From IMG/VR virus record IMGVR_UViG_3300042891_002161: a stretch of 11,433 nucleotides of DNA, one strand, 5' to 3'. Under the pieces are notes generated by a model. It was given only the letters and a program-made list of their open reading frames with translations, made no database searches and was not told where the DNA came from. The position numbers and the translations under genes are program-made. This stretch comes from a virus. Taxonomy: Duplodnaviria; Heunggongvirae; Uroviricota; Caudoviricetes. Positions 4,109-7,364 of this stretch are shown piece after piece (within the stretch, counting starts at the first letter, position 1; each line of letters begins with the position of its first letter).

Positions 4109-4142
4109 ATTCAAAGGCTAAAAAATCTTTTATAATTTATTT

Positions 4143-4171
4143 TTAAACAAATCAGTAAGATATAGTATAAT
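4143..4171 (+). promoter_or_regulatory. Possible sigma70-like promoter for the cysC operon
   Basis: Perfect TATAAT at 4166-4171, with a weak -35 (TTAAAC, 4143-4148) at 17-nt spacing. A second TATAAT lies at 4131-4136. The AT-rich context lowers significance. Confidence 0.35.
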
Positions 4172-4175
4172 CCGT

Positions 4176-4760
4176 ATGAATTTAACTAAGCACAATTTCA
4201 AAACAACGAAAGAAAACCGTGAGTCTATAAAAAATCAAAAGTCATGTACAATTTGGATGTCTGGATTATCAGGTTCTGGTAAGTCTACATTAGCTAATTT
4301 AGTTGAAGAAAAACTAATTAGTTTAGGATATCACACTTATATTTTAGACGGTGATAATACAAGAATGGGTCTTAATAAAGACTTAGGCTTTTCAGAAGAA
4401 GCCAGAATTGAAAACATTAGAAGAGTGTCAGAGGTTTGTAAACTTATGAATGATGCTGGTCTTATTGTTATTTGTTCATTTATTTCCCCATTTGAAAAGA
4501 ATAGAGAACAAGCAAAAGAAATTATTGGTGATAACTTCTTTGAAGTTTTTGTAGATGCTGATTTACAAACTTGCGAAGAAAGAGATCCAAAAGGTCTTTA
4601 TAAAAAAGCAAGATCTGGTGAAATCAAAGAATTCACTGGAATCTCATCTCCATTTGAAATGCCAAGTAAAGGCATTATGTTAAAAAATAATACAGAAGAA
4701 GATTTAGAATCTAACGTAAATTTTCTTACTGATTTAATAGTAAAAAATAATAACAAATAA
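4176..4760 (+). CDS. cysC: Adenylyl-sulfate (APS) kinase
   Basis: P-loop WMSGLSGSGKST, LDGDNTRMGLNKDLGFSEEARIENIRRV, SFISPF and CEERDPKGLYKKARSGEIKEFTGISSPFE are all canonical CysC motifs. Confidence 0.97.
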   Translation: MNLTKHNFKTTKENRESIKNQKSCTIWMSGLSGSGKSTLANLVEEKLISLGYHTYILDGDNTRMGLNKDLGFSEEARIENIRRVSEVCKLMNDAGLIVICSFISPFEKNREQAKEIIGDNFFEVFVDADLQTCEERDPKGLYKKARSGEIKEFTGISSPFEMPSKGIMLKNNTEEDLESNVNFLTDLIVKNNNK

Positions 4761-4761
4761 T

Positions 4762-5220
4762 ATGTGGTCAAAAGTAAATCACGGTGGTGAACCCACTAAG
4801 AACCCAGATAAAAAGTATGCTATCTTTGTTGGTAGATATCAACCTTATCACTATGGACATATTGAATTAATTCAACAAAAATTGGATGCAGGTGTTCCTG
4901 CTTTAGTTATGGTTAGAGATATCGCTCCTGACGAAAAGAATCCATTTACAACTGAACAAACAGTAGAAATGATTGAAAAATATCATAATGCTAAAGGCGA
5001 TGATGTAAAAGTAATGATTATCCCAGATATTGAATCTGTTAACTACGGAAGAGGTGTTGGTTATGAAATTAATGAATTTACACCAACTAGTGAAATCGCT
5101 TTTATTTCAGCTACAAAAATTAGAGAATCTATCAAAAACGGTGATGATTCTTGGAGAACAATGGTTCATGAATCTATACAAGAAGATGTAATAAAAAATC
5201 TTATGGAGGCAAATGTCTAA
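4762..5220 (+). CDS. Small HxGH-superfamily (cytidylyltransferase-like) nucleotidyltransferase; candidate minimal ATP sulfurylase
   Basis: GRYQPYHYGH (HxGH), KNPFT and C-terminal ISATKIR (SxTxxR). It is translationally coupled to cysC (TAA-T-ATG). The fold assignment is solid; the substrate is inferred from context. Confidence 0.75.
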   Translation: MWSKVNHGGEPTKNPDKKYAIFVGRYQPYHYGHIELIQQKLDAGVPALVMVRDIAPDEKNPFTTEQTVEMIEKYHNAKGDDVKVMIIPDIESVNYGRGVGYEINEFTPTSEIAFISATKIRESIKNGDDSWRTMVHESIQEDVIKNLMEANV

Positions 5221-5647
5221 TACAGAAAAAGTCTATCAAGTAAGATATAATACACAGTCTACCAATGATTCTAACCGCTGGAGATTACTTTGTGATGGTC
5301 AAGAAATATTAGTTGCTAATATTGTTATCAATTCGCAAACTTATACAACTAAAGATTATATTGAAGGAGTTGGTGATAAATGGCACGTTACTTGTCGTGG
5401 CGAACTAACAATTGAAAACGGAACAGCTTATATTAACTTTAAGAAAGATAATGCTATTGCTCGTCACTTAGCTAAAACAATCACTTGGAGAATTGTAGGA
5501 TCAATTGATACTATGTTAGTTAGTTGGTTAATAACAGGAAATCTAAAAATGGGATTGGCTATTGGTGGTGTTGAAATTTTGACTAAAATGGTACTTTACT
5601 TTTTTCACGAAAGAGCCTGGTACAAATGGGGAAAACTTAGTAGATAA
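5213..5647 (+). CDS. DUF2061-family membrane protein fused to an unknown ~80-aa soluble N-terminal domain
   Basis: C-terminal RHLAKTITWRIVGSIDTMLVSWLITG...EILTKMVLYFFHERAW matches the DUF2061 pattern (KxxxWR...YYxHERxW). It overlaps the upstream gene by 8 nt. Confidence 0.8.
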   Translation: MSNTEKVYQVRYNTQSTNDSNRWRLLCDGQEILVANIVINSQTYTTKDYIEGVGDKWHVTCRGELTIENGTAYINFKKDNAIARHLAKTITWRIVGSIDTMLVSWLITGNLKMGLAIGGVEILTKMVLYFFHERAWYKWGKLSR

Positions 5648-5682
5648 TAAAAAAACCTCTCAAAATTTGAGAGGTTTTTTTA
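5648..5682. terminator. Bidirectional intrinsic terminator between convergent operons
   Basis: TAAAAAAACCTCTC-AAAATTT-GAGAGGTTTTTTTA has a perfect inverted repeat and a 7-nt U tract on both strands. It lies between the stops at 5647 and 5689. Confidence 0.9.
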
Positions 5683-5688
5683 TGTTCT

Positions 5689-6486
5689 TTATTTCTTTTT
5701 CCAAAACTCAGTATCGTGAAGTTTCTTATACCATTCTCTACCGATAACATCAATAGCATCTGATTTAGCAGGTAGTAATCCACCTTTTTTAATTTCATGT
5801 AAATCATTACCCCAACCATATCCAGCATCATTCTCTCTAATAGTTTGTTCAATATTACTAAAATCATGTTGATAATATTCTTCACCAATAAACTCATAAA
5901 GTTTCTTAAACCAAAAATCAGGATTTGAACTCCATTGTTCATATGGAAAGAATAAAATTCTATCACCTAAACCTCTTTGAATCGTATCTAAGATAGAAAC
6001 ATAAGGTCTTCCTATAACTCCTTCATCAGAAGTCCAAACACCAATTCTACCATCAATAGTTTTCATTTTAGGATTAGAAAACTCACCGTGAATCTCACCA
6101 TCAGCTCTATTCTTTCTGAATAACTTTTCAAAAGAAGAACAAATATCTTCTAAGTTTCTAACACAAGCAATAATTCTAGCGGGTTGATTAGTTGCTTTTT
6201 CAATAAACTCAATATGAGTTGACCAACCTCTGTTTTTATCAAAGATAACTTCTTTATCAGTTTTGTGATAGTTTTGCATAATGGCTCTAATAACAGCCCA
6301 TTTGTCTTGACCTTCTTCATAAACTTTATGACCTTCTAATTTATTCCAGTTATCTCTAACTTGTAAAAGAAAGTCTAATAAAGATGAAGTTGCTGTTGTA
6401 GCAAACTTTGGATTCTGTAACAGAATATTTGTTAATAAAGTTGATCCACTTCTTGGTAGACCACCTATATAGTTGATTTTTCTCAT
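5689..6486 (-). CDS. PAPS-dependent sulfotransferase (Sulfotransfer_3-like)
   Basis: 5'-PSB loop YIGGLPRSGSTLL, 3'-PB motif IIACVRNLEDICSSF and a later PYE motif. Its start overlaps the upstream stop as ATGA. Confidence 0.9.
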   Translation of the reverse strand: MRKINYIGGLPRSGSTLLTNILLQNPKFATTATSSLLDFLLQVRDNWNKLEGHKVYEEGQDKWAVIRAIMQNYHKTDKEVIFDKNRGWSTHIEFIEKATNQPARIIACVRNLEDICSSFEKLFRKNRADGEIHGEFSNPKMKTIDGRIGVWTSDEGVIGRPYVSILDTIQRGLGDRILFFPYEQWSSNPDFWFKKLYEFIGEEYYQHDFSNIEQTIRENDAGYGWGNDLHEIKKGGLLPAKSDAIDVIGREWYKKLHDTEFWKKK

Positions 6487-7364
6487 AGTTCTAATAGTTT
6501 GTTTATTATTTCATTTGAATCAAATATCTTCAATTTATCATAAGGAAATTGAACTGGATTACCACCAATATCAAAATCATCTAAATAAGAAGAATGATAA
6601 GTATCAAATACAGGATTTTCTGTTGGTTTAACATTAGTATGTATGTCATAACCTAAAATCTCAGGTTTGTTACCAACCCAACAAACAACTGACTTTAATC
6701 CAAAAGCCGCCGCAGAGTGTTGAGAGAATGAATCAATTAATAATCTCTTTTTAGAGAAAAGAACTGATGCTAGTACCTCTCTTGTGTCTAATGATATTCT
6801 ATGACATCCTTGAATTAATGGTTGTCCTTCATAACCTAATTGATAGATATGATAATCATTTTTGAAATAATTAACAACATCTACCGCATTTTGAATTGGA
6901 ATATCTCTATACCAAGAATAAGGTCTTGATTTAGCACCACCTCCACCACCATTAGTATGTAGTAAGAAAATAGGTTTAGTAACACCTTGTGTCATTTTAT
7001 TTTTAACACCTTCTAATTCTAAAGGTGAGAAATAAAGTTTAGGAGTTTCTTTATTGTATTTAGCACCAACTAAATCACACCAAACTTGAACTAAGTGTTT
7101 TTTATTTAGAATATAATCTTCAGCGTGATAAGGATCAACTCTAAAGATTTTTACATCTTGATCTTTAATGAAATTTTTGTAAAAGTTGGCAACCTGACCC
7201 ATAGGAAATATTTGATGAACATTTGGATTATTAAACCAAACTTGAGGCCAAGCAGAAACTACAATAATATTTCTTTTTGGATCTGTTTTTTTGAGTGAAT
7301 CAATAACTGCCGTAGCTAAGATATTTTTACCGATTCCACCTTCAATGTGAAATATTGAATACAT
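6483..7364 (-). CDS. GT-B fold glycosyltransferase, GT9 (heptosyltransferase)-like
   Basis: N-terminal FHIEGGIGKNILATAVIDSLKKTDPKRNIIVV...NNPNV and C-terminal LLIDSFSQHSAAAFGLKSVVCW parallel the GT9 motifs GGIGD...P...nP and DSgxxHlAaA.g.p.v. Confidence 0.7.
   Translation of the reverse strand: MYSIFHIEGGIGKNILATAVIDSLKKTDPKRNIIVVSAWPQVWFNNPNVHQIFPMGQVANFYKNFIKDQDVKIFRVDPYHAEDYILNKKHLVQVWCDLVGAKYNKETPKLYFSPLELEGVKNKMTQGVTKPIFLLHTNGGGGGAKSRPYSWYRDIPIQNAVDVVNYFKNDYHIYQLGYEGQPLIQGCHRISLDTREVLASVLFSKKRLLIDSFSQHSAAAFGLKSVVCWVGNKPEILGYDIHTNVKPTENPVFDTYHSSYLDDFDIGGNPVQFPYDKLKIFDSNEIINKLLEL

Follow-up and report, generated by a model that had tools for sequence, protein, structure and literature searches.

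Sat and CysDN are the only kinds of ATP sulfurylase recognised so far, and annotation pipelines rely on them when inferring sulfate activation. Sat (PF01747, EC 2.7.7.4) is a protein of about 380–400 aa with the HIGH nucleotidyltransferase fold, a PUA-like N-terminal domain and a C-terminal domain, and it also occurs within the bifunctional PAPS synthases Sat-CysC and CysC-Sat. In the A. vinosum structure, the contacts to the APS sulfate come from the QxRN motif, through its Gln and Arg, and from the GRD loop, through a backbone NH (PMC3779200). CysDN is a GTP-driven heterodimer of a PP-loop ATP pyrophosphatase and a GTPase, and its CysN subunit is often fused to CysC. The HIGH fold is also found in the NadM-type NMN adenylyltransferases (NMNATs) and in CoaD (PPAT), a minimal enzyme of about 160 aa whose product is passed to a P-loop kinase, dephospho-CoA kinase (CoaE), that acts on the 3′-OH of the adenylate. 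Here we describe a 152-aa nucleotidyltransferase (NT) from a very large marine phage. We favour, by a modest margin, the reading that it is a minimal ATP sulfurylase feeding an adjacent APS kinase; the support is genomic and structural, the activity is inferred, and there are no assays of any family member. The proposed reaction is that of CysDN, whose fold is unrelated to that of NT. The reaction and the superfamily are known, whereas the minimal family, to which the activity is assigned by inference, appears to be unrecognised, and no description of it was found in the literature searched.

The window, that is, the whole 11,433-nt stretch of DNA analysed here, is a 30% G+C piece of this phage, in which an enzyme cassette is flanked by fibre and LamG genes. 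The features of the cassette are as follows.

4142..4171, plus strand: promoter-like site (TTTAAA, 18-nt spacer, TATAAT; 10 of 12 positions match), just 5′ of cysC
4176..4760, plus strand: cysC, adenylyl-sulfate (APS) kinase, 194 aa (PF01583, 219.5 bits)
4762..5220, plus strand: HxGH nucleotidyltransferase (NT), 152 aa, candidate minimal ATP sulfurylase (PF01467, 34.2 bits)
5213..5647, plus strand: 144-aa DUF2061 protein (PF09834, 85.5 bits, residues 86–136)
5647..5683, no strand: hairpin with a 17-bp stem and A and T runs on either side (terminator scan)
5689..6486, minus strand: PAPS-type sulfotransferase, 265 aa (Sulfotransfer_3, E 1e-14; Sulfotransfer_1, E 1e-10)
6483..7364, minus strand: 293-aa ORF, sharing 4 nt with the sulfotransferase gene, with which it is co-conserved

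The product of cysC is a bona fide APS kinase, scoring 237.7 bits on the apsK equivalog model TIGR00455 (cut-off 138.7) and 243.2 bits on NF003013 (cut-off 163). Its stop codon (TAA, 4758–4760) is separated by a single T (4761) from the start codon of NT (ATG, 4762), confirming the TAA-T-ATG coupling reported in the first-pass annotation. That annotation had not mentioned the 8-nt overlap between the NT and DUF2061 genes, nor the 17-bp-stem hairpin at the end of the three-gene unit. The DUF2061 protein is composed of an N-terminal segment of about 80 aa without any family match, followed by the DUF2061 two-helix membrane domain. From sequence alone, we infer that cysC, NT and the DUF2061 gene form one unit closed by the hairpin, which is predicted to be a strong bidirectional terminator common to this unit and the convergent sulfotransferase unit; the scan returned 3 terminator-like sites against 0.5 expected. 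The promoter-like site is weak evidence at best, and its function no more than possible, because the scan count of 15 is barely above the 11.1 expected in shuffles.

The convergent sulfotransferase, which we presume from its sequence to be the consumer of PAPS, is co-conserved with the cassette in eleven viral-like loci (L001–L006, L089, L090, L103, L123 and L125). Copies of the 293-aa ORF, 71–94% identical, adjoin the sulfotransferase gene in related contigs, and the pairing is kept in many viral contigs; this ORF has no Pfam match at E ≤ 0.05, and hence no match to a glycosyltransferase family. Besides cysC and NT, the ORFs of the window encode only fibre or LamG-type proteins, the DUF2061 protein, the sulfotransferase and the 293-aa protein, so that the reported absence of sat and cysDN from the window holds. 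It holds equally for a viral record of 385 kb, about 95% complete, whose NT is 94% identical to that of the window and which matches neither PF01747 nor CysD. Furthermore, neither Sat (PF01747) nor CysD was found in any of the 20 related viral records searched (117–385 kb), a set that includes this record and one that is 100% complete.

NT belongs to the HIGH-signature nucleotidyltransferase superfamily, matching PF01467 (CTP_transf_like) at 34.2 bits against a gathering score of 21, and 57 of 60 family members match this model as well. By curated models, NT is not a NadM, a CoaD or a NadD. Specifically, it scores 48.0 bits on TIGR01527 and 52.4 bits on NF002243 (NadM-type NMNAT; cut-offs 181.2 and 127), 28.9 bits on TIGR01510 (PPAT/CoaD; cut-off 103.3) and 25.7 bits on TIGR00482 (NadD; cut-off 112.45), and meets none of these cut-offs. 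The structural model of NT predicted by AlphaFold, built on 60 homologues, is a single domain with a pLDDT of 96.3. A Foldseek search with this model put NMNAT and PPAT on top, and an exhaustive structural search returned M. jannaschii NMNAT (Z 14.2), PPAT (Z 13.0), NadM (Z 12) and Thermus ATP sulfurylase 1v47 (Z 10.1, 22% identity over 129 residues), followed by 3cr8 (Z 8.4), other Sat enzymes (Z 6–8), TagD (Z 6.1) and HldC (Z 5.5).

The closest described relatives of NT, in both sequence (E 2e-6) and fold, are therefore NadM-type NMNATs (TIGR01527; 1f9a, 1ej2, 2qjt), and the solved structures that are related by sequence are NadM enzymes only (residues 17–91). NT shares with them GRxQPxHxGH, NPF(T/S) and the catalytic Arg/His/Arg set, here R25, H33 and R121, which correspond to R11, H19 and R136 in the titles of the 1m8x mutant structures. 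In contrast to NadM, NT is about 30 residues shorter in the acceptor-binding half, its alignment is limited to residues 20–114 (positions 2–98 of the 167 in the NMNAT profile), it has VRD and GRxxGY motifs of its own, and its genomic partner is APS kinase rather than a Nudix domain or NadV. NT resembles CoaD in being a small HIGH adenylyltransferase coupled to a P-loop kinase, but its partner is not CoaE and its carrier genomes have a CoaD of their own.

The four motifs that the first-pass annotation had quoted are all present, GRYQPYHYGH at residues 24–33, KNPFT at 59–63, YGRGVGY at 95–101 and ISATKIR at 115–121. The same annotation had noted that the Arg of NPFTxxER is missing. This is correct for the window, where Thr68 occupies the Arg position of NadM NPF(T/S)xE(Q/R)R in the alignment to 2qjt and 2qjo, but it is not diagnostic, since the position varies within the family and several cellular members retain ER.

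Conservation across 60 diverse homologues is concentrated in a small set of residues. G24, H33, S116 and R121 are invariant, while R25, P28, H30, R52, P61, V82, D89, G96, R97, G100, Y101, T118, I120, W131 and V135 are near-invariant (R25, H30 and T118 at 90% or above). The residues of nucleotidyl transfer, R25, H30, H33, S116, T118 and R121, are intact in the window protein. In addition, R52 (in VRD), D89, G96-R97 and G100-Y101 (in GRxVGY) and W131 are conserved to the same degree as the catalytic motifs; we treat these residues as family-specific, an inference from sequence, since the alignments to the curated NMNAT and PPAT models fail to span them. The window NT contains all near-invariant residues of the family motif set (GRxQPxHxGH...VRD...NP...IPD...GRxVGY...ISATxIR...W) and has cysC directly upstream; it meets the definition of the proposed family, an APS-kinase-linked minimal adenylyltransferase.

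We compared NT with Sat by profile–profile alignment; four Sat proteins from genomes served to build the Sat profile. With hhalign, the NT family aligns to this profile at E 2.9e-4 and 40% probability, in a register that sets HxGH, GR and ISATxIR of NT on HxxH, the GRD loop and ISGTxxR of Sat. Within this gapped alignment, G96-R97 falls on the GR of Sat GRDHAG, and D-H-A is not retained. PF01747 itself is matched by 19 of 60 NT relatives at E ≤ 0.01 (best 5e-7), among which P0131 scores 21.6 bits; the window protein has no match to this model (gathering score 24.3 bits). NT and Sat have in common the fold, HxxH and the ISxTxxR helix, and both are fused to APS kinase in either order; a Gly-Arg loop of NT is set on the GRD loop by the gapped, 40%-probability alignment only. 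They differ in that the NT family spans only about 110–150 aa (152 in the window), lacks both the PUA-like N-terminal domain and the C-terminal domain, and has VRDxxxDxxNP in place of the Sat GxxKxxD loop and an NMNAT-like GRxQP in place of the QxRN sulfate-binding loop. In GRYQPYHYGH, G24 and Y26 occupy the positions of the QxRN Gln and Arg, while HxxH is retained as H30 and H33. The Sat sulfate site is not conserved in the NT family, and sulfate, if it is a substrate, must therefore be bound differently. The first-pass argument from Sat-like motifs is accordingly upheld only in part, in that the register is as proposed, at modest probability, and the QxRN ligands are absent. In its proposed working, NT resembles the catalytic domain of Sat, an assignment in which the activity is inferred, yet it lies outside PF01747.

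The strongest support for the sulfurylase reading is comparative, not biochemical. The NT family comprises 1216 cluster representatives at E ≤ 1e-3; near-identical environmental copies run to thousands and are named only 'cytidyltransferase-like', while some sources label relatives as NMNAT. Among the best 150 of the 1216 representatives (clustered at 50% identity), 47 are fused to APS kinase, 35 as APSK-NT and 12 as NT-APSK (Pfam-checked). A scan of cellular genomes, one per species, with a 12-sequence sub-alignment as query returned 75 loci spanning more than 15 phyla, including Acidobacteriota, Bacteroidota, Omnitrophota, Planctomycetota, many CPR phyla, Pseudomonadota and Fidelibacterota, and, in archaea, Thermoplasmatota, DPANN and others. 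Of these loci, 68 have a callable ORF, and in 65 of them NT is accompanied by an APS-kinase homologue, fused in 50 and adjacent in 15, again in both orders; the three exceptions are contig ends or a very distant match. In viral-like loci, the kinase homologue is directly upstream of or fused to NT in 53 of 54. A maximum-likelihood tree requires at least 4–6 changes of arrangement on well-supported branches, and it places the window NT among APSK-NT fusions, as sister (98/87) to those of CPR loci L016 and L018. The pairing is therefore near-universal and has been re-formed repeatedly. The first-pass annotation had named homologues not associated with cysC as grounds for refutation; this check does not refute the reading, and its inference of a stripped-down domain making APS is supported by the genomic and structural evidence, with the activity still inferred.

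The apsK model (cut-off 138.7) accepts the kinases paired with NT in the window and in its nearest relatives, with scores of 237.7 bits for the window, 200 for L016, 201 for L018, 257 for P0123, 189 for P0131, 201 for L042 and 150 for L013, whereas many of those in divergent clades are truncated and fall below it (76 bits for L019, 78 bits for L026). A PAPS-type sulfotransferase lies within 6 kb of NT in at least 25 of the 75 cellular loci, 20 by direct profile search and 5 more by Pfam checks. A higher count obtained by clustering neighbours was rejected as an overcount, in which GT2-only proteins had been joined through GT2-sulfotransferase fusions. Glycosyltransferases, epimerases and UDP-glucose dehydrogenases are also common neighbours.

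In Omnitrophota and Planctomycetota (L029, L031, L035, L039, L042, L044–L046, L050, L052, L058 and L060), a conserved operon encodes a GT2-sulfotransferase, a second sulfotransferase-like protein, an arginine-deiminase-superfamily protein, an NT-APS kinase fusion, a methyltransferase and a B12-binding radical SAM enzyme. It is likely, judging by sequence alone, that this operon makes a sulfated, methylated product, the nature of which is unknown. A second recurrent context (L036, L047, L054, L055 and L074) combines a DeoC-family aldolase, a zinc alcohol dehydrogenase and the NT-APS kinase fusion with an APC-family permease fused to a PTS EIIA domain. In Pyrinomonadaceae (L008, L010 and L013), a cysC-NT-GNAT-sulfotransferase unit adjoins a phage-tail-collar-domain protein and a DUF6916 protein; the unit is present in only 3 of 121 Pyrinomonadaceae genomes sampled, which suggests horizontal transfer. 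With so few carriers, a complementarity test within this family was dropped. One genome of that sample, G057, is unpublished and supports none of the claims made here.

We asked whether the sulfurylase role is vacant in genomes that carry NT. Of 42 carrier genomes found by the locus search, Sat is present in 4, CysD above cut-off in 6 and a CysD-like protein in 7, or 16 in total with one counted twice; neither Sat nor CysD(-like) is present in the remaining 26, among which are G003, a complete Pyrinomonadaceae chromosome of 4.5 Mb, and each of the 9 CPR genomes tested. As controls, we used the APS-kinase genomes without an NT gene in a 201-genome Omnitrophota sample (APS kinase in 90, NT gene in 5), among which 12 of 78 have neither Sat nor CysD(-like). 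The difference between 26/42 and 12/78 is significant (Fisher p = 3e-7), as is that within Omnitrophota alone (5/10 carriers against 12/78 controls, p = 0.02), with the caveat that the control comes from a single phylum and that most genomes are MAGs. The 12 Omnitrophota that have APS kinase and none of Sat, CysD(-like) or NT (G217, G229, G232, G236, G246, G273, G296, G304, G324, G325, G328 and G335) may be incomplete MAGs or may possess yet another source of APS.

In five carriers without another sulfurylase, CoaD is present in 5/5 and NadD in 4/5, and the PPAT and NaMN adenylyltransferase roles are therefore not vacant. In the Omnitrophota genome of L042 (G017), NadD-like and CoaD-like matches lie at about 40180–44454 of contig C3, inside a 37,731-aa open frame that we infer from its sequence to be a giant gene. 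At least three Sat-bearing carriers have, in addition to the NT-linked kinase, a separate APS-kinase domain: in G015 a cysC is beside Sat, in G001 the Sat ORF is long enough to hold a kinase, and in G017 a second kinase is nearby. This gives the NT-APSK unit of these genomes the look of a second module complete in itself. An Acidobacteriota MAG locus (L007, 5117–7168) encodes a CysD-like protein of 267 aa and a CysN-like GTPase of 412 aa without a kinase domain, divergent from and adjoining an NT-APS kinase fusion; it is the only one of the 75 loci in which candidate sulfurylases of both kinds lie side by side.

The viral relatives are distinguished by the DUF2061 protein, which accompanies NT in 53 of 54 viral-like loci (L001–L006, L089–L136) and in 0/75 cellular loci, so that DUF2061 was rejected as a universal partner. 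Most often its gene directly follows that of NT; in some loci it precedes the kinase gene instead. A DUF2061 gene is also found in a Mesorhizobium nod locus with nodH and nodPQ (preprint 10.1101/2022.04.26.489235), which provides another link between DUF2061 and PAPS. Among cultured phages, Xylella phage Sano gp35 (L087, 4587–5324) and Stenotrophomonas phage DLP_6 (L088, 3593–4324) encode fusions of about 245 aa, annotated 'kinase' or 'hypothetical', that combine a truncated APS-kinase-like P-loop domain (PF01583 at 27–38 bits; 27.6 bits for Sano gp35) with a short NT homologue. The fusions of Xylella, Stenotrophomonas and Xanthomonas phages lie among DNA-metabolism genes (MazG, topoisomerase, ligase) with no sulfotransferase, and these short forms may differ in function.

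In the mechanism we propose, NT would act as a small HIGH-motif adenylyltransferase that converts ATP and sulfate into APS and PPi, and the coupled APS kinase would turn APS into PAPS, thereby pulling the unfavourable adenylylation of sulfate forward. Sulfate as the second substrate is an inference; the family-specific R52 (VRD) and R97 (GRxxGY) are inferred candidates that may help to bind it. PAPS would then be spent by the convergent sulfotransferase, whose target, inferred from gene position only, is probably a virion-fibre glycan or one of the infected cell. The phage cassette would in this way supply its own sulfate donor.

Several observations weigh against the sulfurylase reading. The closest matches in sequence and structure are NMNAT and PPAT rather than Sat, and the Sat sulfate ligands are absent; 16 of 42 carriers also have Sat or CysD(-like), with L007 holding CysD-like and CysN-like genes alongside; the short-form relatives Sano gp35 and DLP_6 sit among DNA-metabolism genes without a sulfotransferase; and a phage could take APS from its host. 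Among the alternatives, the one we regard as unlikely rather than very unlikely is that NT makes another small molecule linked to a nucleotide, to which the APS-kinase-type partner adds a 3′ phosphate, giving a non-sulfate donor. There is precedent for such logic in PPAT with dephospho-CoA kinase and in the Campylobacter CDP-amidate kinase Cj1415. In the structural search PPAT ranks second (Z 13.0), the sulfate ligands of Sat are not conserved, and many divergent-clade kinases are truncated and below the apsK cut-off (L019, L026), with Sano gp35 weak on PF01583. Against this, the window kinase and those of its closest relatives score above the cut-off of the APS-kinase equivalog model, PAPS-type sulfotransferases are recurrent neighbours, CoaD is present in all five carrier genomes tested, and no glutamine-kinase or amidohydrolase genes of the phosphoramidate pathway are found among the neighbours of NT.

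The other three alternatives are somewhat less probable still. NT could be an NMN/NaMN adenylyltransferase for phage NAD salvage beside cysC by accident; some phages are known to encode an NMNAT, NadM-type NMNATs head the HMM, PDB and fold searches, and some relatives are so named. However, NT reaches 48 bits where 181 are required (TIGR01527), aligns over its N-terminal half alone and is about 30 residues short in the acceptor-binding half, NadD is already present in four of five carrier genomes, and a role in NAD metabolism leaves unexplained the near-universal pairing or fusion with APS kinase in both orders. It is equally doubtful that NT is an accessory of APS kinase (a scaffold, a regulator or a protein acting otherwise on APS or PAPS) instead of the source of APS. 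In favour of this view, the structural matches include 3cr8 (Z 8.4), a Thiobacillus APS kinase whose title names an inactive sulfurylase-like domain, L007 has CysD-like and CysN-like genes with its NT-APSK fusion, and 16 of 42 carriers have another sulfurylase; but HxGH, ISxTxxR and GR are invariant or nearly so over 60 diverse members, which argues for catalysis, and 26 of the 42 carriers lack any other APS source. Finally, glycosyltransferases, epimerases and UDP-glucose dehydrogenases commonly adjoin NT, and TagD and HldC share its fold weakly (Z 6.1 and 5.5), as would be expected if NT activated a sugar-, heptose- or polyol-phosphate for nearby glycan-building genes in the manner of these enzymes. 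We consider this very unlikely, given that the TagD and HldC matches are much weaker than those to NMNAT, PPAT or Sat, that the fusion to APS kinase is left unexplained, and that the 293-aa neighbour has no glycosyltransferase family match.

The sulfurylase reading may be extended to a bolder one, which we rate as slightly more likely than not. Here the family would be a third, independent class of ATP sulfurylase, a single domain of 110–150 aa that arose from an NMNAT/PPAT-like ancestor and not from Sat, and that delivers APS to a dedicated kinase in modules making PAPS for sulfation. It would operate in CPR bacteria, DPANN and marine archaea, Omnitrophota, Planctomycetota, Acidobacteriota and giant phages, in the phages together with the DUF2061 membrane protein, which might conceivably place PAPS synthesis at the membrane.

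If such a third kind of ATP sulfurylase exists, it would explain many genomes that at present seem to have APS kinase but no source of APS, among them those of CPR bacteria, Omnitrophota and marine archaea and the complete Pyrinomonadaceae chromosome. It would also make surface-glycan sulfation predictable in lineages so far regarded as incapable of sulfate activation, and a 15-kDa sulfurylase could serve in the enzymatic regeneration of PAPS. Giant marine phages, for their part, would carry a complete PAPS pathway beside their fibre genes.
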